Shown one piece after another: positions 1-7,616 of a stretch of DNA of 7,616 nt. A program made the position numbers and the translations under genes. Below the pieces are notes generated by a model. It saw nothing but the letters and a program-made list of their open reading frames with translations, was not told the DNA's origin and did not search any database. The DNA comes from a virus (Duplodnaviria; Heunggongvirae; Uroviricota; Caudoviricetes), in the IMG/VR virus record IMGVR_UViG_2695420643_000016, positions 1 to 7,616 of that record. The stretch is one strand, 5' to 3'. Every line of letters begins with the position of its first letter. Position 1 is the stretch's first letter.

Positions 1-96
1 GCAGAAGCAGAAAAAGCTTATTATGCTTCCATCGGAAACGATGATCTGGCAGCCTGAGTTCACAGATAAAATACTCTCCAGGAAACCCGGGGCGGT

Positions 97-204
97 TCAC
101 TGGCAGGCCTGAATCACAAACTGGCAGGCCACAATCTTTCCGCGCACAACATCACGGGCATACTGATTGGCAGCATTTACGTTGGGGTAAGATTTCCGGC
201 TCAT
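97..204 (-). pseudogene. N-terminal fragment of a large terminase (TerL-like), 35 codons ending in an in-frame TGA; probable truncated or disrupted terL
   Basis: ATG at 202..204 overlaps the terS stop (ATGA). Translation is [35 protein letters not shown] then TGA at 97..99. The Y-A-x-D-V-x-x-G-K-I-x-A-C ... A-C-Q pattern matches my recollection of the N-terminus of PF03354/COG4626 large terminases, where R-x-L-x-D-L normally follows. No frame in 1..96 continues that motif. A single-base misreading on my side cannot be excluded. Confidence 0.35.
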
Positions 205-695
205 GACTCGATGATTTTCAGAAACGGGTTAGTGGCTTTCTTCTGCCCCGCCAGGCCAATCAGACGCTGGCGGCTGCTGGGGTCGAGTCCGAGCATTGCC
301 CCCGTGCTGCTCATCTCGGACTCCTGTTCTTTTTTGGCGGTCAGCTCCGGATTTTTGACCCTGCCGCCCATTGCACCGGTGATGGTGTTGCCCTGTATGG
401 CAATATTTTTCACGGCACGTCGCCAGAACTCATAGGCCACGCACCACCGCTCAAGCACCGCGAGGTCAGTCACGCACAACAGGCCCTGACCGCAGAGTTC
501 TTTGGTTGTCAGTTGCCACATGATCGTGGCGAGAGGGAGATTTTCTTCTGCGAACCACTCCGGTGGCTCAACACCTTTGATGGGCGTAAAAACAGGTTCA
601 TCTTTATTCAGGGCTCGCTTGCCGGGGTTTCCGGCCAGCGCCTTGCGCGCCGTTGGCTTGGGGCGACGCCCGGAACGCCCCGCCGTTCCAGCCAT
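201..695 (-). CDS. terminase small subunit (P27-like family)
   Basis: Track ORF 201..704. Product [27 protein letters not shown]... resembles P27-family TerS as I recall it. The track start is GTG at 704; the in-frame ATG at 693..695 is preceded by AGGAG and is the likelier start. It sits immediately downstream of the HNH gene and is coupled to the next ORF by an ATGA overlap. Confidence 0.8.
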
Positions 696-745
696 ATGCG
701 GCACTCCTGGTTAAATTTCATTTTTCGCGGGTATAAAAAAACGAT

Positions 746-794
746 GGGGCGGGCAGTCCGGAAGACGTCAGGTCACAGGGATTTGACCCGCCCC
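746..794. other. candidate cos (cohesive end) region between the HNH and terS genes
   Basis: G-rich inverted repeat GGGGCGGG (746..753) and CCCGCCCC (787..794) flank a 33-bp core containing a GACGTC palindrome, preceded by an A7 tract. The GGGGCGGGCAGTCC string loosely resembles the lambda-type cohesive end GGGCGGCGACCT. The gene order HNH-cos-terS is the known HK97-type packaging arrangement. Confidence 0.3.
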
Positions 795-820
795 TCCCCT
801 CTTGCAGTGGGAACTGGTTC

Positions 821-1171
821 TTACTTCAGCCGTTCACGGGCCGTCTTCGCCTTATGACACGGCCAGCACAGGCTCTGCAGATTGCTGTCGGCATCAGTGC
901 CGCCATGCGCTTTAGGGATGATGTGGTCAACGGTTTTCGCCTCGCGCACCACACCGGCACGCAAACACAACTGACACAGGCCTTTGTCACGCTTTAGTAC
1001 ACGCCCCCGGATAACATCCCATTTCGAACCATAACCGCGCTGGTGTCGGGACTGGCCTGGCTTGTATTGCTTCCAGCCCTCGCTTTTGTGGCTTTCGCAA
1101 TAACCTGACGGGTCAGTCGTGGTATGGCGGCAGCCGCGAACTCGGCAGGCTTTTGGGGTTCGTGGTGGCAT
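821..1171 (-). CDS. HNH homing-type endonuclease, phage packaging-associated
   Basis: Track ORF 821..1270 begins with TTG; the in-frame ATG at 1169..1171 (MPPRTPKACRVRGCRH...) is preceded by GGAG at 5-nt spacing. The product has CxxC...C...H and DHIIPKAHGG...N...CWPCH motifs typical of HNH nucleases. It lies directly upstream of terS. Confidence 0.8.
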   Translation of the reverse strand: MPPRTPKACRVRGCRHTTTDPSGYCESHKSEGWKQYKPGQSRHQRGYGSKWDVIRGRVLKRDKGLCQLCLRAGVVREAKTVDHIIPKAHGGTDADSNLQSLCWPCHKAKTARERLK

Positions 1172-1292
1172 ATGTACTCCAATGAAGAAGCTACCGACAT
1201 AGCCTCCTCCATTCGTCGTGAAACTATTTTCATCTACCCAGTAATGAATTCTTTGAAGAGTCGAGATCAATACAACTCACTGATGGGAGAGG

Positions 1293-1314
1293 CTTGCCTC
1301 ACGCGTGAGGCAAG
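1293..1314. repeat. perfect 22-bp palindrome CTTGCCTCACGCGTGAGGCAAG (possible stem-loop or protein-binding site)
   Basis: Read directly from the sequence. It lies in the roughly 290-bp gap between the Rz1 stop and the HNH start. The T-rich flank TTTCCTGTTTGATTT is on the plus-strand side only, so it is not a canonical terminator for the minus-strand late transcript. Confidence 0.5.
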
Positions 1315-1394
1315 TTTCCTGTTTGATTTACTGGACAGTATAGGGGGGCAGAATGCCTTCCTCACTCGAATAACATCAATTAAGGAGGTTCAAC

Positions 1395-1517
1395 ATGTTT
1401 CATTCCACAAGTCATCAGGCTGTAATTATGGTAGCATCAGTTTGTGCCACATACCTTTTCCGCTTCACTTTGAGTCTGATTCATTTCTACCTGACCGGCT
1501 CGCCTCTATCTTTCTAA
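1395..1517 (+). CDS. hypothetical 40-aa hydrophobic peptide (possible small membrane protein)
   Basis: A consensus Shine-Dalgarno TAAGGAGGT sits 6 nt upstream of ATG 1395. Translation is MFHSTSHQAVIMVASVCATYLFRFTLSLIHFYLTGSPLSF with one predicted transmembrane span. It is in the opposite-strand position that the bor moron occupies in lambda. It overlaps the 3' end of Rz1 antisense and no convincing promoter was found. Confidence 0.2.
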   Translation: MFHSTSHQAVIMVASVCATYLFRFTLSLIHFYLTGSPLSF

Positions 1518-1740
1518 TCCCCGCTTTGTCAATATTGCATTGTCCCAACGCTGACAACAGACTCACATTCAACTCCAGACTGGCACCATACGTCAGCGGA
1601 TTGGGTATAAACGGTACAGGAGTATCAGAAGTCAGGCTGGCTGGCAGTGGTGCCACCGGAGCGCTCACGTAAACCGTTCGCGAATTTCCGCAACCGGTCA
1701 GCAGCGACAGCAGGCACAGGACGTGAAGCACAATCATCAT
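1465..1740 (-). CDS. Rz1: o-spanin (Rz1-like outer-membrane lipoprotein), overlapped architecture
   Basis: Tandem ATG-ATG at 1735..1740 in the +1 frame inside Rz. Product MMIVLHVLCLLSLLTGC... has a lipoprotein signal with lipobox LLTG-C followed by a proline-rich mature region. The frame stays open 160 bp past the Rz stop. Confidence 0.55.
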   Translation of the reverse strand: MMIVLHVLCLLSLLTGCGNSRTVYVSAPVAPLPASLTSDTPVPFIPNPLTYGASLELNVSLLSALGQCNIDKAGIRKIEASRSGRNESDSK

Positions 1741-2017
1741 CCGCAACAGCCACTTTGATATCTTCCTGGGTTCTCTGTGACTCCAGTGTGATCTGCTGTT
1801 TTGCATGCTGGTTAGCCTCCAGAACTGTATTGACGATTTGCAGTGATTGCAGGACGTTATTGGTAATGACAGTTGCCGATTTGGCATTTTGTACAGCCTC
1901 ATCAGCACGTTTCTTTTCGTGCTGATATTTGCTGTAGTAGTGGTTGGCAGACCAGATGAAAGAACCGATGACAGTAAAGAAGAATGCAGCGATAACCAAC
2001 TTATAGCTCAACTTCAT
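1625..2017 (-). CDS. Rz: i-spanin (Rz-like), N-terminal TM anchor plus coiled-coil periplasmic domain
   Basis: 130-aa ORF directly after the endolysin, overlapping its 3' end by 17 nt. N-terminal hydrophobic segment LVIAAFFFTVIGSFIW followed by a charged, helix-prone sequence. Rz1 is embedded or overlapped in the +1 frame. Confidence 0.75.
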   Translation of the reverse strand: MKLSYKLVIAAFFFTVIGSFIWSANHYYSKYQHEKKRADEAVQNAKSATVITNNVLQSLQIVNTVLEANQHAKQQITLESQRTQEDIKVAVADDDCASRPVPAVAADRLRKFANGLRERSGGTTASQPDF

Positions 2018-2477
2018 TTACCACCCCACCAGCCTCTTTAAACCGGGCAATCAGATCACCGATTTTATGTTCATACTGACCGTAACCAGCACCCGGCAAT
2101 GAAGCCCAGATATTGCTGCAACGGTCGATTGCCTGACGGATATCACCGCGATCAATCATCGGCAAAGCGCCACGCTCTTTAATCTGTTGCAATGCCACAG
2201 CGTCCTGACTTTTGGGAGAGAAGTCTTTCAGGCCAAGCTGATTACGGTAGGCATCCCACCAACGGGAAAGAAGCTGGTAACGTCCGGCGGCTGTTGATTT
2301 GAGTTTGGGGTTTAGCGTGACAAGTTTGCGAGGGTGATCGGAGTAATCAGTAAACATTTCACCACCGACAATAACATCATAACCGTGGTTACGTGTCGGT
2401 TGTCGCCCGTTATCCGTTCCTTCTGACCATGCAACCATATCCAGGAAAGCTTTACGCTGGGAATTTAGTACCTGCAT
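2001..2477 (-). CDS. R: endolysin, lambda R-type lytic transglycosylase
   Basis: 158-aa product MQVLNSQRKAFLDMVAWSEGTDNGRQPTRNHGYDVIVGGEMFTDYSDHPRKLVTLNPKLKS... is near-identical over most of its length to phage lambda R as I recall it, including the catalytic E in the WSEGTD motif. It sits between the holin and Rz. Confidence 0.92.
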   Translation of the reverse strand: MQVLNSQRKAFLDMVAWSEGTDNGRQPTRNHGYDVIVGGEMFTDYSDHPRKLVTLNPKLKSTAAGRYQLLSRWWDAYRNQLGLKDFSPKSQDAVALQQIKERGALPMIDRGDIRQAIDRCSNIWASLPGAGYGQYEHKIGDLIARFKEAGGVVNEVEL

Positions 2478-2480
2478 AAA

Positions 2481-2807
2481 TTACTCCTTAGAGCCACCAA
2501 ACTTATTACCGATTACTCTCATTGCAGCCCCACGAATAGCATCGACCCCGATCAGCCCAACGCCGCCACCAATGGCAACAGAAAGAGATTTAGGCCATCC
2601 GACATACTCAAGAGCGGATGCAAAAGTCAGCGTCAGAGCACCACAGAGCAAAATCTCGAGCGTTTTTCGTTTCCAGCCACCACCACCGCCAAAATAGGCA
2701 ATGCGCAAGCCAGCCATAACGATCGACATAATCACTGCGCCCAGCGGTGTGTCTCCACGCCACCAGCTCTGGACCAACTCCAGCCAGGTATTTGGGTTAT
2801 GAGGCAT
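2481..2807 (-). CDS. holin (class I-like, three predicted TM segments)
   Basis: 108-aa ORF immediately upstream of the endolysin with a 3-nt gap. Three hydrophobic stretches (LGAVIMSIVMAGLRIAYF, LEILLCGALTLTFASALEYV, LSVAIGGGVGLIGVDAI) and a charged C-terminus. The size matches lambda S. Confidence 0.7.
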   Translation of the reverse strand: MPHNPNTWLELVQSWWRGDTPLGAVIMSIVMAGLRIAYFGGGGGWKRKTLEILLCGALTLTFASALEYVGWPKSLSVAIGGGVGLIGVDAIRGAAMRVIGNKFGGSKE

Positions 2808-2959
2808 TTGTAGTTATCTCTCACCTCGCTGATACAGCAGGTGCAAATTGAGGGAACATCATGTACCGCAAATCAGAAGCGGAAACATCAAAGAAGCCGA
2901 ACCGATGGAGAACTGCGGAATAGGCCAGGACCAACGAATCCCCAGCCACAGAAACGACA

Positions 2960-2981
2960 AAACCCGCTCGACGGCGGGTTT
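2960..2981 (-). terminator. tR'-like intrinsic terminator in the late leader upstream of the holin
   Basis: On the minus strand, AAACCCGC-CGUCGA-GCGGGUUU (8-bp stem, 6-nt loop) is followed by UGUCGUUUCUG, a hairpin plus U-rich tract. It lies about 150 nt upstream of the holin start, where lambdoid phages place tR' between pR' and S. Confidence 0.4.
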
Positions 2982-3103
2982 AAGCTGTGTGGCGAAGTAA
3001 CCACTCTTAACAGATTACAATGTTTTTTGCGGAACGCGCTAATGATTTCCTCTTTTTTTTGTTGTATTTTTCACACGGTTGCTAAAATTATTTCGGATCG
3101 ATA
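2982..3103 (-). promoter_or_regulatory. inferred late promoter (pR') and Q-utilisation region, exact elements unresolved
   Basis: Inferred from position between the tR'-like hairpin and the cassette. The only -10-like hexamer on the minus strand is TGTAAT (plus coordinates 3015..3020) with a weak -35. No element could be assigned with confidence. Confidence 0.25.
3059..3088 (+). promoter_or_regulatory. candidate sigma70 promoter for the plus-strand cassette
   Basis: TTGTTG (3059..3064), 18-bp spacer, TAAAAT (3083..3088), about 15 nt upstream of ATG 3104. It is embedded in a T-rich tract that includes a T8 homopolymer at 3053..3060. The leader would be very short and has a weak SD. Confidence 0.25.
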
Positions 3104-4045
3104 ATGAGTACAGAAAATAAGAATAAAACCAGGCGAGTGAGAGTTGGTTTTTTCACTGGTAATGGAAGCAAAAAAGATGGCACATCTGCTGCAAAACTAG
3201 CCTTTGAGCAAATGACCACAGCAGATACTGTAACTTTTCCAATAACTTACACAACAGACACCCCAAATCGAGGGTTAAAGTTAGTTATTCTTCAAAAAGA
3301 TACCACACTGCAATGTTACTTTGGTTACGTATCGTGGAGAAGGGAATGCCTACTACCGTTCATCGAGGATGCTACAGGTAGTGAGAGAACAATTCCTTTA
3401 AATGATAAAGATTCTGTAGTTGAAAGAACATATTTTATCTATTACTACGAAACGGACTTATTAGCTATGACCCTCAACCATATAGGGCCCAAAGTAAATG
3501 ATCTGGCATTCATTTTGTATAACAAAACTGATTTAAAAAGCGTCACTTTTGAAGCCATTTGGAAACAAGAGAGCATGAAGGAACTGCTTGAGGACGGAAA
3601 TATCCTACGTAGTTTCGATCTTATAGTTGCTGCTCCAAGAAACTTTAACAAAGCTAATTATAAGATTAAAAACCCTTTAGCTAATGAAATTATTGACATG
3701 GTTGTTGGTATGGGCGGGTCGCATCTAAGATTAAATATGCGAGGTCGGATTCGCCCGAAAAAACAAGGATTTAACTATCTAAAAACTTCTGTCACCGATG
3801 CTATTAAGGAACTACTTGAACTTTTTCCAAAAGGTTCTGGAGGTCTAAAAATTAAAAAAATTGATGTAACAGAGCCATCCAATAGAACGCCCAAAAGTCT
3901 ACTTGACCAAGTATTGGTCAGTACAAAGACAATCATTGTCAAAAGCGGTTATCCATCCGATTCTGATATCAGAACGGCGATGATATCTGCTAAAATTGAT
4001 AACGCGAACTATCTTGCACAGTATGAGCTCGCTAGCAGAGACTAA
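3104..4045 (+). CDS. hypothetical 313-aa soluble protein, first gene of the AT-rich cassette; candidate sensor component of a RexA/RexB-like two-gene defence module
   Basis: Long ORF on the strand opposite the phage late operon. Hand-counted GC is about 33-37% versus about 58% in a flanking phage gene. No signal peptide or TM segment, and no Walker, HxH, DEAD or PD-(D/E)xK motif that I could recognise. It is followed after 21 nt by a membrane-protein gene. Confidence 0.8.
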   Translation: MSTENKNKTRRVRVGFFTGNGSKKDGTSAAKLAFEQMTTADTVTFPITYTTDTPNRGLKLVILQKDTTLQCYFGYVSWRRECLLPFIEDATGSERTIPLNDKDSVVERTYFIYYYETDLLAMTLNHIGPKVNDLAFILYNKTDLKSVTFEAIWKQESMKELLEDGNILRSFDLIVAAPRNFNKANYKIKNPLANEIIDMVVGMGGSHLRLNMRGRIRPKKQGFNYLKTSVTDAIKELLELFPKGSGGLKIKKIDVTEPSNRTPKSLLDQVLVSTKTIIVKSGYPSDSDIRTAMISAKIDNANYLAQYELASRD

Positions 4046-4066
4046 TAACCAAGCATGGAGGACACA

Positions 4067-4516
4067 ATGAGAGAATTAGCCACTTTTCTCTGGAAATGCG
4101 TCCTCTGGATTCTGTTGACCTATGCAGCGACAAAACTGTTTAAACCGATGAAGCATGCTGACGTACTCACAACAGCGGGGGTGCTCTCGACTATATCAGG
4201 CATCCTGTTTGGTTTTGTTCTGGCTGCAATATCTATATTTAGTAGTGCAAACAGCGATAAGGAAGGAGCAATTAATGCCCTTAAGCAAAACAACGTGTTA
4301 CCAACTCTGGTAAATAGATTACTTTCAACAGGGTTAACTCTCATCGTCGCGTGTATATTTCCATTGATAGCGATGTTTCTACCTGATGATGTTATTGTTG
4401 CGGGCAAACCTATTGATTTCCTGTTCATACTGTTAGGCTTATCCTCCCTTATAATTTCGCTATATACCTTCGGAAGGTGTTGGTTAGTGTTACGAAAAAT
4501 CTTCCCCCACTTGTGA
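4067..4516 (+). CDS. hypothetical 149-aa inner-membrane protein with four predicted TM helices; candidate effector of the cassette
   Basis: Track ORF 4055..4516. The ATG at 4067 is preceded by GGAGG at 5-nt spacing; the ATG at 4055 has no SD and would add MEDT. Four hydrophobic segments of about 20 aa each (FLWKCVLWILLTYAATKLF, VLSTISGILFGFVLAAISIF, LLSTGLTLIVACIFPLIAMFL, IDFLFILLGLSSLIISLYTF). Same AT-rich composition as the upstream gene. Confidence 0.8.
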   Translation: MRELATFLWKCVLWILLTYAATKLFKPMKHADVLTTAGVLSTISGILFGFVLAAISIFSSANSDKEGAINALKQNNVLPTLVNRLLSTGLTLIVACIFPLIAMFLPDDVIVAGKPIDFLFILLGLSSLIISLYTFGRCWLVLRKIFPHL

Positions 4517-4545
4517 CAGGTTGGCCTCATATGGGGCCAACCTGT
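4516..4545. repeat. stem-loop (11-bp perfect stem, 8-nt loop) at the convergent junction between the cassette and the Q gene
   Basis: ACAGGTTGGCC (4516..4526) pairs with GGCCAACCTGT (4535..4545). It begins at the stop codon of the membrane-protein gene and ends 7 nt before the Q stop. No U-tract on either strand. Confidence 0.45.
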
Positions 4546-4551
4546 GCAACC

Positions 4552-4917
4552 CTAAGCGTCCATTTCAAGGTTAACATCCAACATTGAAAGGCAACCATCA
4601 ATAAATCCTTCGGCTAGTTGTATTTCTATGCGTACCAATTTTTCATCCTTTCCACGCACCTTTGCAATCTTACGCTTGGATATTCTGTATAAATAATGTG
4701 CCACAAGCAGCGAGTGCTCATCTGGCTTTTTTTGCTTTAGACGAGCAAGACAACCTTCAATAATTAATGCATCACTATCTGAACAAGCCTGACGTGTTTT
4801 GCTTGTGTAGGGAAGAAGCCCCTTAAACCCAGCAGCTATAGGCGAATAGTCTACTCCAGAACTATCACTCGCCGCCCATGCTCCCCAACGCTCCAGAACC
4901 ATCTGAATATCACGCAT
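4552..4917 (-). CDS. late-gene antiterminator Q, short QuuD-like family
   Basis: Product MRDIQMVLERWGAWAA...AAGFKGL...LEMDA matches my recollection of the DLP12 Q homologue QuuD in its N-terminus and overall pattern. The track start is TTG at 4920; the ATG at 4915..4917 is preceded by GGAG. It sits between the nin-like genes and the lysis cassette. Confidence 0.7.
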   Translation of the reverse strand: MRDIQMVLERWGAWAASDSSGVDYSPIAAGFKGLLPYTSKTRQACSDSDALIIEGCLARLKQKKPDEHSLLVAHYLYRISKRKIAKVRGKDEKLVRIEIQLAEGFIDGCLSMLDVNLEMDA

Positions 4918-4934
4918 CAACTTTCTCCACCAAA

Positions 4935-5930
4935 TCAGGCCAACACCCCAATCGCCAGCGCGCGATCGATAAAACGAAATATCAGCTCCAGTTGGGAGCC
5001 ATACTTCTCTTCAAATGCCACGGTATCCGCATGCAGCTCGTCGTGATGCTTTCTGCACAAAGGCAACACAAAGAGGTCATGCGCTTTTGTACCCATTCCA
5101 CCCTGACCGTGACCTATCAGGTGGTGGGGATCATCAGCAGGCTTTCCACAACATGCACACGGCTGTGTCTTAACCCAGCGCGTGTACTTTTCATTAACCC
5201 AGCGGCGGCGTTTTGGTCGTAACATAAAAGACTCCAGCGACTCCGGATCCACTTTCAGCGCCAGCACCTTTTTCGCTTTATCCTGGATAATGCTGGTGGC
5301 AGGAACCGAAGGCACAAGGTCACTTTCCCGGGTGACCGCCTGCACAACAGGCTTCGGTAATCTCAGTGCCTTACGGGCTGCACTTTCCGGTAAGGCATCC
5401 GCCAGGTCATTACGAATCAGCCACCAGCACAGTTCCGGTATTGTCACAACGTGACTGTCATCAAAACCGAGATCCCGACGCACAACAGACAACACCCAGC
5501 GGGCACAGTTATCCGTTGCCATTGATTCCAGCCGTTCCGTGAACTGATCGCGCAGCTGGTTATCGCAGTGCCAGCACAAACGGATTGCGCCCGGAGCGTG
5601 TCGCATTGTTGTCATGTTCTCGCTGTGCCAGTCGGAATGAGGCCACTGGCAGCCTTTTTCACGAAGTAACCAGCTTTCAAGACATTCCACGCCACCAGCA
5701 CGACGGATCACTGCCTCATTGCGGAATACGGCCCGAACGGCAGGATCATCCGCCAGCGGTTGTGATGCCGCCGGAACGGCACCACTGGCGAAAGATGAAT
5801 AACGTTCCGGCTCAGGCTCCAGCAGGACACGCCCCTGCATAAACAGGGGCATCAACTCTGAACCTGGCCTGAACAATACGATCCCCATACGCGGGGCAAT
5901 TTCAGGGGTCAGTAGTGCTCTCACGGTCAC
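4935..5930 (-). CDS. DUF968-like prophage protein with C-terminal zinc-ribbon/HNH-like motif
   Basis: 331-aa ORF directly upstream of Q, the position YdfU (DUF968) occupies next to the Q gene in the Qin prophage. C-terminal CACCGK...DPHH...GGMG.K...LPLCRKHHDELH motif. The track start is GTG, 1 nt after the stop of the upstream gene. Confidence 0.55.
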   Translation of the reverse strand: MTVRALLTPEIAPRMGIVLFRPGSELMPLFMQGRVLLEPEPERYSSFASGAVPAASQPLADDPAVRAVFRNEAVIRRAGGVECLESWLLREKGCQWPHSDWHSENMTTMRHAPGAIRLCWHCDNQLRDQFTERLESMATDNCARWVLSVVRRDLGFDDSHVVTIPELCWWLIRNDLADALPESAARKALRLPKPVVQAVTRESDLVPSVPATSIIQDKAKKVLALKVDPESLESFMLRPKRRRWVNEKYTRWVKTQPCACCGKPADDPHHLIGHGQGGMGTKAHDLFVLPLCRKHHDELHADTVAFEEKYGSQLELIFRFIDRALAIGVLA

Positions 5931-5931
5931 C

Positions 5932-6741
5932 TCAATGAACGGTATCGAGCAGCTTTAACAGCTCAGGGAATCGGGATTCGAAGAAATGCGGCTGCGTCTC
6001 GCGCGGATTTGCGGGACTGGTGATGTTCTTGCCGAACATGCAGCCTTTCGCTGTCAGCGACCAGAATTTTTTGATGTTGTTAATCGCGGTACGGCTGTAT
6101 CGTTCGCGCTGCTCGACGATCCCCAGCTTCACCATCTGGTGATATGCCTGATTAGCCGTCAGGCGGATACCATACTGTTTCAGCAGTGCACTCAGTGACA
6201 GCGTAGGGCGACTTGAGCCATCGTGTGCATCAGCAGGAGCATCAATGGCATAGCGCGGTGCCAGATTCGGTAAGCCAACAGCCTCCTGGAGTTTCTGACA
6301 GGCCCCAAGCACTGAAGAGTTAGACAGGTTTAACTCCCTGCGCATAAAGTCCAGCAGAATCACTCCAGCCTGCATCTTGTCAGCAGCCTGCCCGGATAAT
6401 TTTTCCGGTGCGCTGGTTACCATATCGAAAGTACGGATCACCTTCAGATGGAATGACGGGCTGATCCACATTGCATAGGCATACACCAGTTCTTTGCAGA
6501 CATACGTCCCCTGGTTATTTCCGCCATTAATGACGCTAACTGGTTGATTTTGTTCCAGAGGCGGAATTCCACCCTCGGTGAAAAGTTGTTCAATCAATTC
6601 ACAGGTTTGCTTATTGGAGAGCCAGTATTTCGGGCGGTTTTTTTGTTCTCCCCCGGCTGCCCTGTGCAGATCGTTCAGGCTGTAACGCCCATAAGCATCA
6701 CGACGAACTTCAATACCATCAATGACCATCAGATTATTCAT
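5932..6741 (-). CDS. KilA-N domain protein with a C-terminal domain of unknown function
   Basis: N-terminal region MNNLMVIDGIEVRRDAYGRYSLNDLHRAAGG...KYWLSNKQT...VCKELVYAYAMWISPSFHLKVI resembles the KilA-N DNA-binding domain. The track start at 6774 has no SD and overlaps rusA; the ATG at 6739..6741 is preceded by AGGAGA and is preferred. Confidence 0.75.
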   Translation of the reverse strand: MNNLMVIDGIEVRRDAYGRYSLNDLHRAAGGEQKNRPKYWLSNKQTCELIEQLFTEGGIPPLEQNQPVSVINGGNNQGTYVCKELVYAYAMWISPSFHLKVIRTFDMVTSAPEKLSGQAADKMQAGVILLDFMRRELNLSNSSVLGACQKLQEAVGLPNLAPRYAIDAPADAHDGSSRPTLSLSALLKQYGIRLTANQAYHQMVKLGIVEQRERYSRTAINNIKKFWSLTAKGCMFGKNITSPANPRETQPHFFESRFPELLKLLDTVH

Positions 6742-6760
6742 ACTTCGTTTCTCCTCTTGA

Positions 6761-7150
6761 TCAGGCGGCTGCACCCGCCGTTTTCTCGTACTTACTGATA
6801 GTGATCTCGACCTTCCCTTCCGGGATAACCGGTCCCCACTCCACCAGCATTCTTTTCACCTGGCTGTCGTCTTCCCACACACCCGCGTGAGTCAGGGCGT
6901 CAAACAGCGCCTTGTTATAGTTGTCCAGATCGCGGATCCGGTTATCCGGAGGAAACAACACGATCTCCACTGAAGCAGGTGCTGACGTTGGTTTCGGCAG
7001 ACGACGTAACTGCTCAACTATTGCTGTGCACGCCGCACTCTGGAATTTTCGCCCCGCCGCGCTTATCAGGCTCTTACCAGCAAACGCCCCTTTGTTGGGG
7101 TGTCGCCAGTACGTGTTCACGCTGGGCGGAAAAGGCAGGATCAGCTTCAT
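6761..7150 (-). CDS. rusA: Holliday junction resolvase RusA
   Basis: 129-aa product with the RusA signature region DLDNYNKALFDALTHAGVWEDDSQV, which resembles E. coli RusA (DLDN..KA.FDALT.AG.W.DD.QV). Typical nin-region position. Its start overlaps the stop of the upstream gene (ATGA). Confidence 0.85.
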   Translation of the reverse strand: MKLILPFPPSVNTYWRHPNKGAFAGKSLISAAGRKFQSAACTAIVEQLRRLPKPTSAPASVEIVLFPPDNRIRDLDNYNKALFDALTHAGVWEDDSQVKRMLVEWGPVIPEGKVEITISKYEKTAGAAA

Positions 7151-7473
7151 GCTTTCAGGCCTCTCTCATGTAACCAGTGGGTTGCACGCAGCCTTGCGTT
7201 TTCCTCACCGGCAAGCAGTGAGCGGATAATCCCGACCGCCTCGCTGTCGTCGTCCTTCACCGCGGTATGAAGCGTTATCCCCCGGGCCACGCCACGCTTT
7301 ATCGTGATGACGCCTTTTTTCTCCAGTGCGCGAAGATGCTCCACCGCTGCATTCACTGAACGGTATCCCAGCATGGTTGCCACCTCCTGATTGGTTGGCG
7401 GGAAGCCACGTTCTTTCTGGTAAGAAATCAGCATATCCAGCACCTGCTGCTGGCATTGAGTTAATGTCGTCAT
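7147..7473 (-). CDS. LexA-family N-terminal DNA-binding domain protein (winged helix), no peptidase domain
   Basis: Product MTTLTQCQQQVLDMLISYQKERGFPPTNQEVATMLGYRSVNAAVEHLRALEKKGVITI...ARGI parallels the LexA N-terminal domain (LT.RQ.EV...I......G.PPT..EIA..LG..S.NAA.EHL.AL..KG.I). At 108 aa it is too short to carry the S24 peptidase domain. Confidence 0.8.
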   Translation of the reverse strand: MTTLTQCQQQVLDMLISYQKERGFPPTNQEVATMLGYRSVNAAVEHLRALEKKGVITIKRGVARGITLHTAVKDDDSEAVGIIRSLLAGEENARLRATHWLHERGLKA

Positions 7474-7616
7474 GCCGCCATCTCCCTGACCAGTTTTTCT
7501 GCCTGCTGGCGAACCTGCGCCAGAAACGCCTCACCACATGCCTCAAGTTCATCGCGCCCGATGTAGCTGATTGCCGGTCCCTTCCAGGTCTTGTCGAAAA
7601 CAGCAATAGCACCAGC
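7470..7616 (-). CDS. 3' end of a gene of unknown function running off the right edge of the window
   Basis: Open frame from the window edge, translated C-terminus ...AGAIAVFDKTWKGPAISYIGRDELEACGEAFLAQVRQQAEKLVREMAA, ending at TGA 7470..7472, which overlaps the next gene's ATG (ATGA). It is in a different frame from the spurious Arg-rich track ORF 7205..7612. Confidence 0.5.
   Translation of the reverse strand, partial: AGAIAVFDKTWKGPAISYIGRDELEACGEAFLAQVRQQAEKLVREMAA

Follow-up and report, generated by a model that had tools for sequence, protein, structure and literature searches.

A two-gene cassette between Q and the lysis genes

We analysed a stretch of viral DNA of 7,616 nucleotides (nt), positions 1 to 7,616 of IMG/VR record IMGVR_UViG_2695420643_000016, which is called the window below. 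It covers the late-regulatory and lysis region of a lambdoid prophage of Escherichia coli, and its genes lie mostly on the minus strand. Two genes were found on the opposite (+) strand: an open reading frame (ORF) of 313 amino acids (aa) at 3104-4045, called here the partner gene, and a membrane-protein ORF at 4055-4516. Together they form the 1.4-kb cassette (3104-4516) studied here. It lies between the antiterminator gene Q and the lysis genes and is oriented against the late genes. The GC content of the cassette is 36-42%, compared with 49-59% in the flanks, and its base composition is foreign. In all likelihood the pair is related to RexAB, the anti-phage suicide switch, and has so far escaped annotation. 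The features of the cassette are given below; residue numbers of the transmembrane (TM) helices follow the 153-aa numbering, that is from the ATG at 4055.

3104-4045, + strand: partner gene, 313 aa; cytoplasmic protein with a predicted RexA/RdgC-type fold, divergently related to DUF6731; presumed sensor
4055-4066, + strand: upstream ATG and three codons (MEDT); contains the Shine-Dalgarno (SD) sequence; most likely untranslated leader
4067-4516 including the stop codon, + strand: membrane-protein gene, 149 aa, putative RexB-like component; placed by the SD, the RefSeq start and the alignment of homologues
4076-4132, + strand: TM1, residues 8-26; Kyte-Doolittle peak 1.54, conservation 0.42, AlphaFold2 helix 2-28; the weakest and least conserved helix
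4169-4243, + strand: TM2, residues 39-63; family signature AGVLSTxSGILFGFVLAAISIFSS, including G49xxxG53
4244-4315, + strand: central loop, predicted cytoplasmic; includes a short and conserved amphipathic helix, ALKxNN(I/V)LP; AlphaFold2 helix 71-78
4316-4381, + strand: TM3, residues 88-109; Kyte-Doolittle peak 2.28; T92, L96 and C100 invariant
4418-4477, + strand: TM4, residues 122-141; Kyte-Doolittle peak 2.08; the basic C-terminal tail after it ends in IFPHL

The original prediction described a protein of about 150 aa with four hydrophobic segments, of the size and topology class of RexB. We recovered all four segments as 19-residue Kyte-Doolittle peaks (1.54, 2.27, 2.28 and 2.08). Three of them exceed 2.0 (residues 43-61, 89-107 and 122-140, respectively), and the weakest (residues 8-26) is just under the usual cut-off of 1.6. 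The AlphaFold2 model (34 homologues; pLDDT 81, pTM 0.73) contained long helices at residues 2-28, 34-64, 81-108 and 120-149, and a short one at 71-78. Across the family, lysine and arginine counts were 5.9 for the N-terminus, central loop and C-terminus together and 2.6 for loops 1 and 3; the central loop had the highest count of all loops (3.6), and the net charge of the C-tail was +1.6. The N-terminus, the central loop and the C-tail are therefore predicted to be cytoplasmic (N-in/C-in). With 149 aa, four predicted helices and this predicted topology, the protein falls into the RexB class (about 140-150 aa, four TM helices), as had been proposed.

Conservation within the family peaks in TM2 (0.89), where T46 and G49-V55 are invariant, and is second highest in TM3 (0.79), while the N-terminus is the least conserved segment (0.24). 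The conservation of TM2 and TM3, their invariant residues and the GxxxG motif suit helix packing or pore lining better than mere anchoring. The central loop was aligned by hhalign with the RexB loop KIREYGYM, and this loop is a candidate contact surface for the partner.

The two genes occur together. In all 14 distinct loci with flanking DNA that were examined, an ORF of 283-351 aa was located directly upstream of the membrane-protein gene, and where tested these upstream ORFs matched PF20505 (DUF6731) or were homologous to proteins that do. Among the partner homologues 21 of 34 matched PF20505; the window, Proteus and Vibrio partners did not. Even where identity is as low as 28%, in Endozoicomonas, Nitrosomonas and Desulfoluna, the pairing persists. 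The gap between the genes is 21 nt in the window, and the genes overlap in locus L029 and in phage Sbash. Such a short gap or overlap is consistent with coupled expression and controlled stoichiometry.

We examined the start of the membrane-protein gene separately, since two in-frame ATGs lie 12 nt apart, at 4055 and 4067, with no stop codon between them. The ORF is as described in the original prediction: it spans 4055-4516 on the + strand, has 153 aa from the first ATG and ends with TGA at 4514-4516; an in-frame stop precedes the first ATG at 4046. The observation that only the second ATG has a strong SD also held. This SD (GGAGG, 4057-4061) is separated from ATG 4067 by 5 nt and shares the G of ATG 4055. 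For the sequence before 4067, the predicted pairing with the 3' end of 16S rRNA was -9.3 kcal/mol, which ranks among the best 1.2% of the 20-mers of the window; for that before 4055 it was -2.9 kcal/mol, at background level (38th percentile). Further, the RefSeq protein WP_001208502.1 is the 149-aa form beginning at ATG 4067, and homologues begin their alignment at the same methionine. The true start is almost certainly ATG 4067, which gives 149 aa.

It had also been suggested that the two starts regulate the protein in the manner of a holin and its antiholin, through the short charged extension MEDT. The extension is present as a sequence, but it is acidic and sits on a predicted cytoplasmic N-terminus, unlike that of lambda S107, where the extra residue is basic and the N-terminus must cross the membrane. 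Lambda S105/S107 is likewise a small phage membrane protein with two nearby in-frame ATGs; in the window, however, the starts are four codons apart, the first is without an SD and unconserved, and the gene is on the strand opposite to the lysis cassette (holin, GH24 lysozyme, Rz-like gene), unlike lambda S. In a comparison of 12 lineages at the DNA level, the in-frame ATG at -12 was confined to the E. coli/Citrobacter/Hafnia clade (at least 85% identity) and absent from 8 of the 12 (Enterobacter, Serratia, Salmonella, Yersinia, Xenorhabdus, Klebsiella, Proteus and Endozoicomonas). In Enterobacter, Serratia, Salmonella, Yersinia, Xenorhabdus and Proteus the ATG is missing, and an SD-like element persists a few bases ahead of the annotated start. 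By chance, the six codons preceding a start would contain one or more in-frame ATGs with a probability of about 0.11; of the 17 long ORFs of the window that start with ATG, 4 have a second one within 5 codons. Because ATG 4055 has no SD, the -12 ATG is patchy, the chance expectation is about 0.11 and the N-terminus is variable, the dual start is real as sequence and is best read as incidental. The tandem ATGs are probably a coincidence, a by-product of the sequence around the SD, with no second functional start, and the regulatory proposal was not supported.

Two isoforms made from ATG 4055 and ATG 4067, with the acidic MEDT modulating activity as in a holin/antiholin pair, are thus very unlikely. 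In their favour, both ATGs are in frame without an intervening stop, the upstream one is kept in the three genera of the closest clade, and a different E. coli allele from a separate clade (L021) carries its own ATGATGATTATG run. ATG 4055 also sits 10 nt after the stop codon of the partner (4043-4045), which makes SD-less termination-reinitiation conceivable. Against them stand the points above: the G of ATG 4055 belongs to the SD of 4067, most lineages are without the ATG, it precedes the least conserved segment of the protein, and tandem ATGs are common in the window. There is a similarly slight chance that in the E. coli/Citrobacter/Hafnia clade reinitiation at ATG 4055 yields a minor MEDT isoform that would report the translation level of the sensor, its acidic tail setting the threshold of a Rex-type pore. 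If true, such a stoichiometry-sensing dual start would be a mechanism not described for any Rex-like effector.

Relationship to RexA, RexB and other Rex-like pairs

The membrane protein is outside the Pfam RexB family (PF15968) as now defined. A link to this family was provided by a bridge protein, P0178. It matched the hidden Markov model (HMM) of the window family with an E-value of 3.9e-12 in a search of 1.84e9 proteins, scored 29.9 bits on Pfam RexB, above the gathering cut-off of 27 bits, and matched PADLOC RexB at 3.4e-7. The P0178 gene follows and overlaps a DUF6731 gene on its own contig. Against the RexB HMM, P0178 scored 20.0 bits forward and 0.4 bits when reversed. A second, weak RexB-like match, P0204, also follows a DUF6731 gene.

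Further, we compared family profiles with a 13-member RexB alignment using hhalign. A set of 36 sequences (enterobacterial homologues and matches at E<=1e-10) gave a probability of 47% (E 2e-4), and the same set minus P0178 gave 28% (E 6e-4). With 96 representatives the probability was 85% (E 6e-6), and after 43 RexB-leaning members were taken out it was 60% (E 8.7e-5). Reversed-profile controls gave 0.2-0.5% in four runs (E 0.11-0.31), and the 96 representatives aligned with the holin of this prophage, an unrelated control, gave 0.1% (E 0.62). One register recurred in every forward run; it extends from the end of TM1 through loop 1 and TM2 to the central-loop helix and places TM2 of the family on TM2 of RexB. 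In a structural search of BFVD, the second-best match of the membrane-protein model was a 165-aa protein of phage Sbash (prob 0.99, TMq 0.51). The only 165-aa coding sequence in Sbash is gene 31, a validated RexB-like effector.

These profile and bridge results favour a distant relationship to RexB, short of proof for the window protein itself; the protein is probably a very distant RexB homologue. The original reading of a RexB-type membrane effector is supported by the position downstream of a RexA-fold gene, by size and layout, and by the sequence bridge to Pfam RexB.

The predicted fold of the partner was nearest to lambda RexA, followed by CHL4 (7.2), RdgC (6.8), CENP-N and IML3. An independent Foldseek search with the partner model placed RdgC first (E 3.5e-4), then CENP-L and CENP-N. 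The structural relatives reported for RexA are RdgC, IML3 and CHL4 (PMC11077077). The model of the partner thus points to a RexA/RdgC two-domain fold, and by analogy the protein probably binds DNA. A BLASTP comparison with lambda RexA and RexB gave nothing significant, and a profile search with the partner against PDB sequences gave no match. BLASTP and two hhalign runs repeatedly aligned one motif, ExD...GPxxxDL, although no single alignment was significant. In the window it reads E115-x-D...G128-P-K-x-x-D133-L and in RexA E97-G-D...GPTTSDL; in full, Y-Y-E-x-D-(x)9-G-P-K-x-x-D-L at 3446-3508 is aligned with RexA residues 95-123 (F-V-E-G-D...G-P-T-T-S-D-L). It includes residues invariant in the DUF6731-like family (D118, N125, H126, G128, P129, K130 and D133), and it may mark a shared functional site of the RexA fold.

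We compared the pair with the known systems. In lambda, as in the window, the membrane-protein gene is immediately downstream of a RexA-type gene. Neither window protein directly matches the models of lambda RexB (PF15968) and RexA (PF15969; PDB 8TWQ). Lambda RexA has 279 aa and the window partner 313 aa, and the latter belongs to the DUF6731 neighbourhood. Lambda rexAB is part of the immunity operon, whereas the window cassette occupies the Q-to-lysis interval, on the opposite strand; no internal pLIT-like promoter was detected in it.

The validated Rex-like pairs Sbash gp30/gp31 and gp44/gp43 of Gordonia phage CarolAnn consist of a soluble protein and a four-TM partner, as in the window. The Sbash pair (genome KP027201; PMC4939774) is displaced from the repressor, as is the window pair. 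The topology proposed for RexB and Sbash gp31 is the N-in/C-in arrangement inferred for the window family (PMC6426596). Substitutions in the equivalent central loop of gp31 abolish defence (PMC6426596), and this essential, conserved cytoplasmic loop parallels the ALKxNN loop of the window family. The hosts of Sbash and CarolAnn are Actinobacteria, and the triggers are specific phage proteins. Sbash gp30 (372 aa) and gp31 (165 aa) have no detectable sequence similarity to the window proteins, and hhalign of the membrane-protein family with gp31 was insignificant (probability 0.7%). RexABpp of Pseudomonas putida (PP_5643/PP_5644) is likened by description; RexBpp exceeds 181 aa (a Y181H mutant is reported), compared with 149 aa here.

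Sucellos (SclA/SclB), from cassette 68 of the superintegron of Vibrio cholerae N16961, is a validated two-gene system with a predicted RexAB-like structure and no Pfam RexA or RexB match. SclB is a predicted transmembrane pore, and the system is now in DefenseFinder. Its homologues are mostly found in prophages, often of Salmonella, and in a Nitrosospira temperate phage. By description only, the window family is alike: it likewise occurs in Salmonella prophages and in a Nitrosomonas genome. Sucellos is present in about 98% of S. Enteritidis isolates, whereas no protein cluster of the window family shows matching very high abundance. The window family could be Sucellos or its sister, and the chance is considerable that DefenseFinder, in its current version, already has a name for it.

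Distribution, genomic contexts and flanking elements

We found 84 Enterobacterales homologues of the membrane protein, nearly all of 145-149 aa. A search of 1.84 billion proteins with the family HMM gave 110 cluster representatives at E<=1e-3 (55-177 aa, mostly 135-165 aa). The membrane protein matches phrog_8552 (E 1.7e-44). Scans of Pfam, NCBIfam, PADLOC and PHROGs gave only PHROGs of unknown function and sub-threshold noise (DUF4064, MusI), and the profile search against PDB sequences gave only a spurious PgpB/YodM match (E 0.005). A megablast against the phage collection gave no match, while tblastn identified cdtI and two phages of E. coli. Of 5,426 complete E. coli genomes, 73 carry the cassette at 99% identity or more and another 18 carry a second allele with about 50% protein identity, so that both alleles together occur in approximately 1.7%. 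One of the 73 copies is on a 100.9-kb plasmid record, NZ_CP104632.1, which is possibly a phage-plasmid. Both window proteins are hypothetical in RefSeq (September 2026), PADLOC v2 is blind to the cassette though it carries RexA and RexB models, and a literature search for DUF6731, PF20505 and the RefSeq accessions WP_001446998.1 and WP_001208502.1 found nothing.

Prophages of E. coli, Klebsiella, Citrobacter, Hafnia, Serratia, Enterobacter, Salmonella and Yersinia, as well as phage cdtI, carry the cassette in the Q-to-lysis interval, on the opposite strand. In some Proteus prophages the pair is inserted between the tail chaperone and tape-measure genes, and in another it immediately follows, on the same strand, the gene of a cI-like S24 repressor, where lambda carries rexAB. 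The pair occupies at least four different accessory-gene positions in tailed prophages. In Vibrio phage 10N.286.54.F4_PE001 (L030, PQ189356; 1389-2896) the pair (351 aa and 150 aa) is beside the integrase gene. This phage is a 14.6-kb temperate element of the Vinavirales (PM2-like, Tectiliviricetes), and therefore the module crosses viral realms. In Endozoicomonas elysicola the pair is in a defence island (L006, 4845-11157), which comprises PtuA and PtuB of Septu (3.7e-166 and 2e-76, respectively), the DUF6731 and four-TM pair, PDC-S52 (DUF6988, a candidate) and an Mrr-like type IV restriction nuclease. The cassette behaves as a defence cassette, unlike a lysis or structural gene.

The interval between Q and the lysis genes is an accessory-gene hotspot. 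In related prophages it holds HicAB, a Gp49/helix-turn-helix (HigBA-like) pair, Bro-N and N6/N4 DNA methyltransferases; such modules are located in the following places.

Salmonella L019/L020, 3049-3683 and 6576-7203: accessory modules in the Q-to-lysis interval
L017, 2359-3420: accessory module in the Q-to-lysis interval

We also analysed the DNA flanking the cassette, where two elements were noted.

3040-3103, + strand: AT-rich region, tentatively presumed from the sequence to hold the cassette promoter
4516-4545, no strand assigned: GC-rich 13-bp hairpin without a U-tract; fills the 35 bp that separate the membrane-protein gene from Q, which is convergent with it

The sole -10-like element of the AT-rich region is an extended one, TGCTAAAAT at 3080-3088, which ends 15 nt before the ATG of the partner. 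The SD of the partner gene is weak (-3.3 kcal/mol). This arrangement suggests a partner transcript with a very short leader, which recalls the leaderless cI transcript from pRM in lambda. At the other end, RNAfold of 4510-4565 gave -27.3 kcal/mol. The hairpin at 4516-4545 was not called by the terminator scan because it has no T-run; it is probably a bidirectional transcript end or a stabiliser.

A strongly conserved non-coding block, TAAGCTGTGTGGCGAAGTGACCACTCTTAACAGATTACA...TTTTGCGGACCGCGTTA, is located at 2960-3045, just upstream of the cassette, and is preceded by a minus-strand terminator-like hairpin at 2981-2960 (AAACCCGCCGTCGAGCGGGTTT and a T-run). We found it also in L001, L003, L004, L009-L012 and L017-L026. 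Every locus with the cassette in the Q-lysis region has it, including those where protein identity is about 50%; the Proteus, Vibrio and Endozoicomonas loci lack it. The block probably represents the late promoter that depends on Q, together with the qut site and a short terminated leader; this promoter would lie within 2985-3060. If this is true, the cassette is wedged between Q and the target promoter of Q, and the cassette promoter is divergent from the late promoter.

The minus-strand block of the window comprises the following genes.

201-704, minus strand: small terminase
821-1270, minus strand: HNH endonuclease
1625-2017, minus strand: Rz-like protein
2001-2477, minus strand: GH24 lysozyme
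2481-2807, minus strand: lambda-family holin (PF05106, E 5.7e-25)
4552-4920, minus strand: antiterminator Q
4935-5930, minus strand: DUF968 protein
5932-6774, minus strand: KilA-N protein
6761-7150, minus strand: RusA
7147-7473, minus strand: LexA-like protein

A reading of the membrane protein as a holin was rejected on strand and context and on the presence of the true holin at 2481-2807; there was no holin-family match above noise. The KilA-N gene beside DUF968 is intact in the window (280 aa) and is annotated as a pseudogene with an internal stop in strain EC1722-1 (L001, 10933-11730). A minus-strand shadow ORF (4120-4530, 136 aa) lies over the membrane-protein gene of the window, and in an Enterobacter locus (L025, 3985-4434, minus strand) a called antisense ORF of 149 aa exactly overlies this gene. 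These shadow ORFs are artefacts of the codon bias of hydrophobic genes.

Proposed mode of action and rival explanations

The pairing, the predicted fold of the partner, the four-helix architecture, the remote link to RexB and the accessory-gene and defence-island contexts were seen or computed here. We consider it probable that the cassette is a prophage-borne two-gene abortive-infection or exclusion module of the RexAB type, with the 149-aa protein as its inner-membrane component. Binding of DNA, activation, pore formation and an anti-phage phenotype would then be expected by analogy with lambda RexAB, Sbash gp30/31, P. putida RexABpp and Sucellos. In the lysogen, a promoter of the cassette itself would drive both genes, which are on the strand opposite to the late genes of the phage. 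A superinfecting phage would supply the cue, which might be DNA, a protein-DNA intermediate or a phage protein. The RexA-fold dimer, as the sensor, would switch its state and engage the cytoplasmic central loop or the C-tail of the membrane protein. The latter would oligomerise through its conserved glycine-rich TM2 into a pore or channel. Membrane potential and ATP would be lost, the cell would arrest, phage development would halt and the infection would be aborted.

Several results weigh against this interpretation. The membrane protein gave no match to Pfam RexB at E<=1 and none to PADLOC RexB (PDLC02340), with lambda RexB as the positive control scoring 8.5e-92 and 8.6e-61, respectively, and the partner did not match the RexA family models of Pfam and PADLOC. 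The hhalign comparison of the narrow family profile (34 sequences) with RexB gave a probability of 2% (E 0.025), and that of DUF6731 with RexA was likewise insignificant (0.5-4.5%). Lambda RexB was outside the top 50 fold matches in BFVD, and fold matches of small helical bundles are of low specificity. A consensus scan of 2700-4700 identified no canonical sigma-70 promoter (0 found, 4.1 expected). Sbash gp30/gp31 match no Pfam or PADLOC Rex model either; therefore failing those models leaves a Rex-like function possible. Finally, the roles are reversed in gp30/31 of mycobacteriophage Butters (PMC12894663), so architecture alone leaves the identity of the effector undecided.

This reversed logic is the main rival, and we regard it as unlikely: the RexA-fold protein would be the effector, and the membrane protein would anchor or sequester it until infection. 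The two-gene architecture is the same as in that one described Rex-like system (PMC12894663). RexA-fold proteins bind DNA alone, lambda RexA is active without RexB, and orphan RexA homologues exist (PMC11077077). However, the conservation of TM2 and TM3, with their invariant small and polar residues, exceeds the needs of a passive anchor. The membrane protein is the effector in four of the five described Rex-like systems (PMC12894663) and in Sucellos, and among the loci examined no DUF6731 gene was seen without the membrane protein. It is quite unlikely that the pair mainly serves the cycle of its own prophage and not defence, by acting on the lysis-lysogeny switch or the timing of lysis or by shielding phage or antitoxin proteins from proteolysis. 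Such activities have been reported for lambda RexA and RexB, lambda RexA tilts the bistable switch to lysis without RexB (PMC11077077), and most enterobacterial cassettes adjoin Q, the probable late promoter and the lysis genes. Yet the pair is also found among tail genes, by the integrase gene of a tectivirus-like prophage and in a chromosomal Septu island; it is on the strand opposite to the late operon, and the conserved neighbouring block is missing where the cassette sits elsewhere. Given the non-prophage and tail-region contexts, a role solely in the prophage switch or lysis is unlikely.

Small multi-pass inner-membrane proteins encoded by accessory genes of prophages often block genome injection. 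We could accordingly imagine superinfection exclusion that blocks DNA entry (Sie-, Imm- or Cor-like), or an unrelated membrane protein merely adjacent to a RexA-fold gene, and the window protein has no direct family assignment that would oppose this. Either is very improbable when set against the strict co-occurrence with the RexA-fold gene, which extends from Enterobacterales to Desulfoluna and Nitrosomonas and down to 28% identity with short gaps or overlaps, and against the sequence bridge to RexB.

The RexAB-type two-gene abortive-infection module is well known, and we found the window family under no name (Sucellos was compared by description only). Lambda RexAB is the oldest known abortive-infection system, and its membrane effector is without a solved structure. 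Only five Rex-like pairs were counted as described in a 2026 paper (PMC12894663), and Sucellos is a further one. If true, the links between DUF6731 and the RexA fold and between the membrane partner and RexB would extend the Rex superfamily well past lambda-like phages, and the family would offer conserved residues for studies of the channel, namely TM2, G49xxxG53 and the ALKxNN loop. The cassette is carried also by prophages of Klebsiella, Salmonella, Enterobacter, Serratia, Yersinia and Proteus. If the RexAB-type reading is true, it would account for some of the phage resistance, so far unexplained, that prophages of clinical strains confer, which is relevant to phage therapy.

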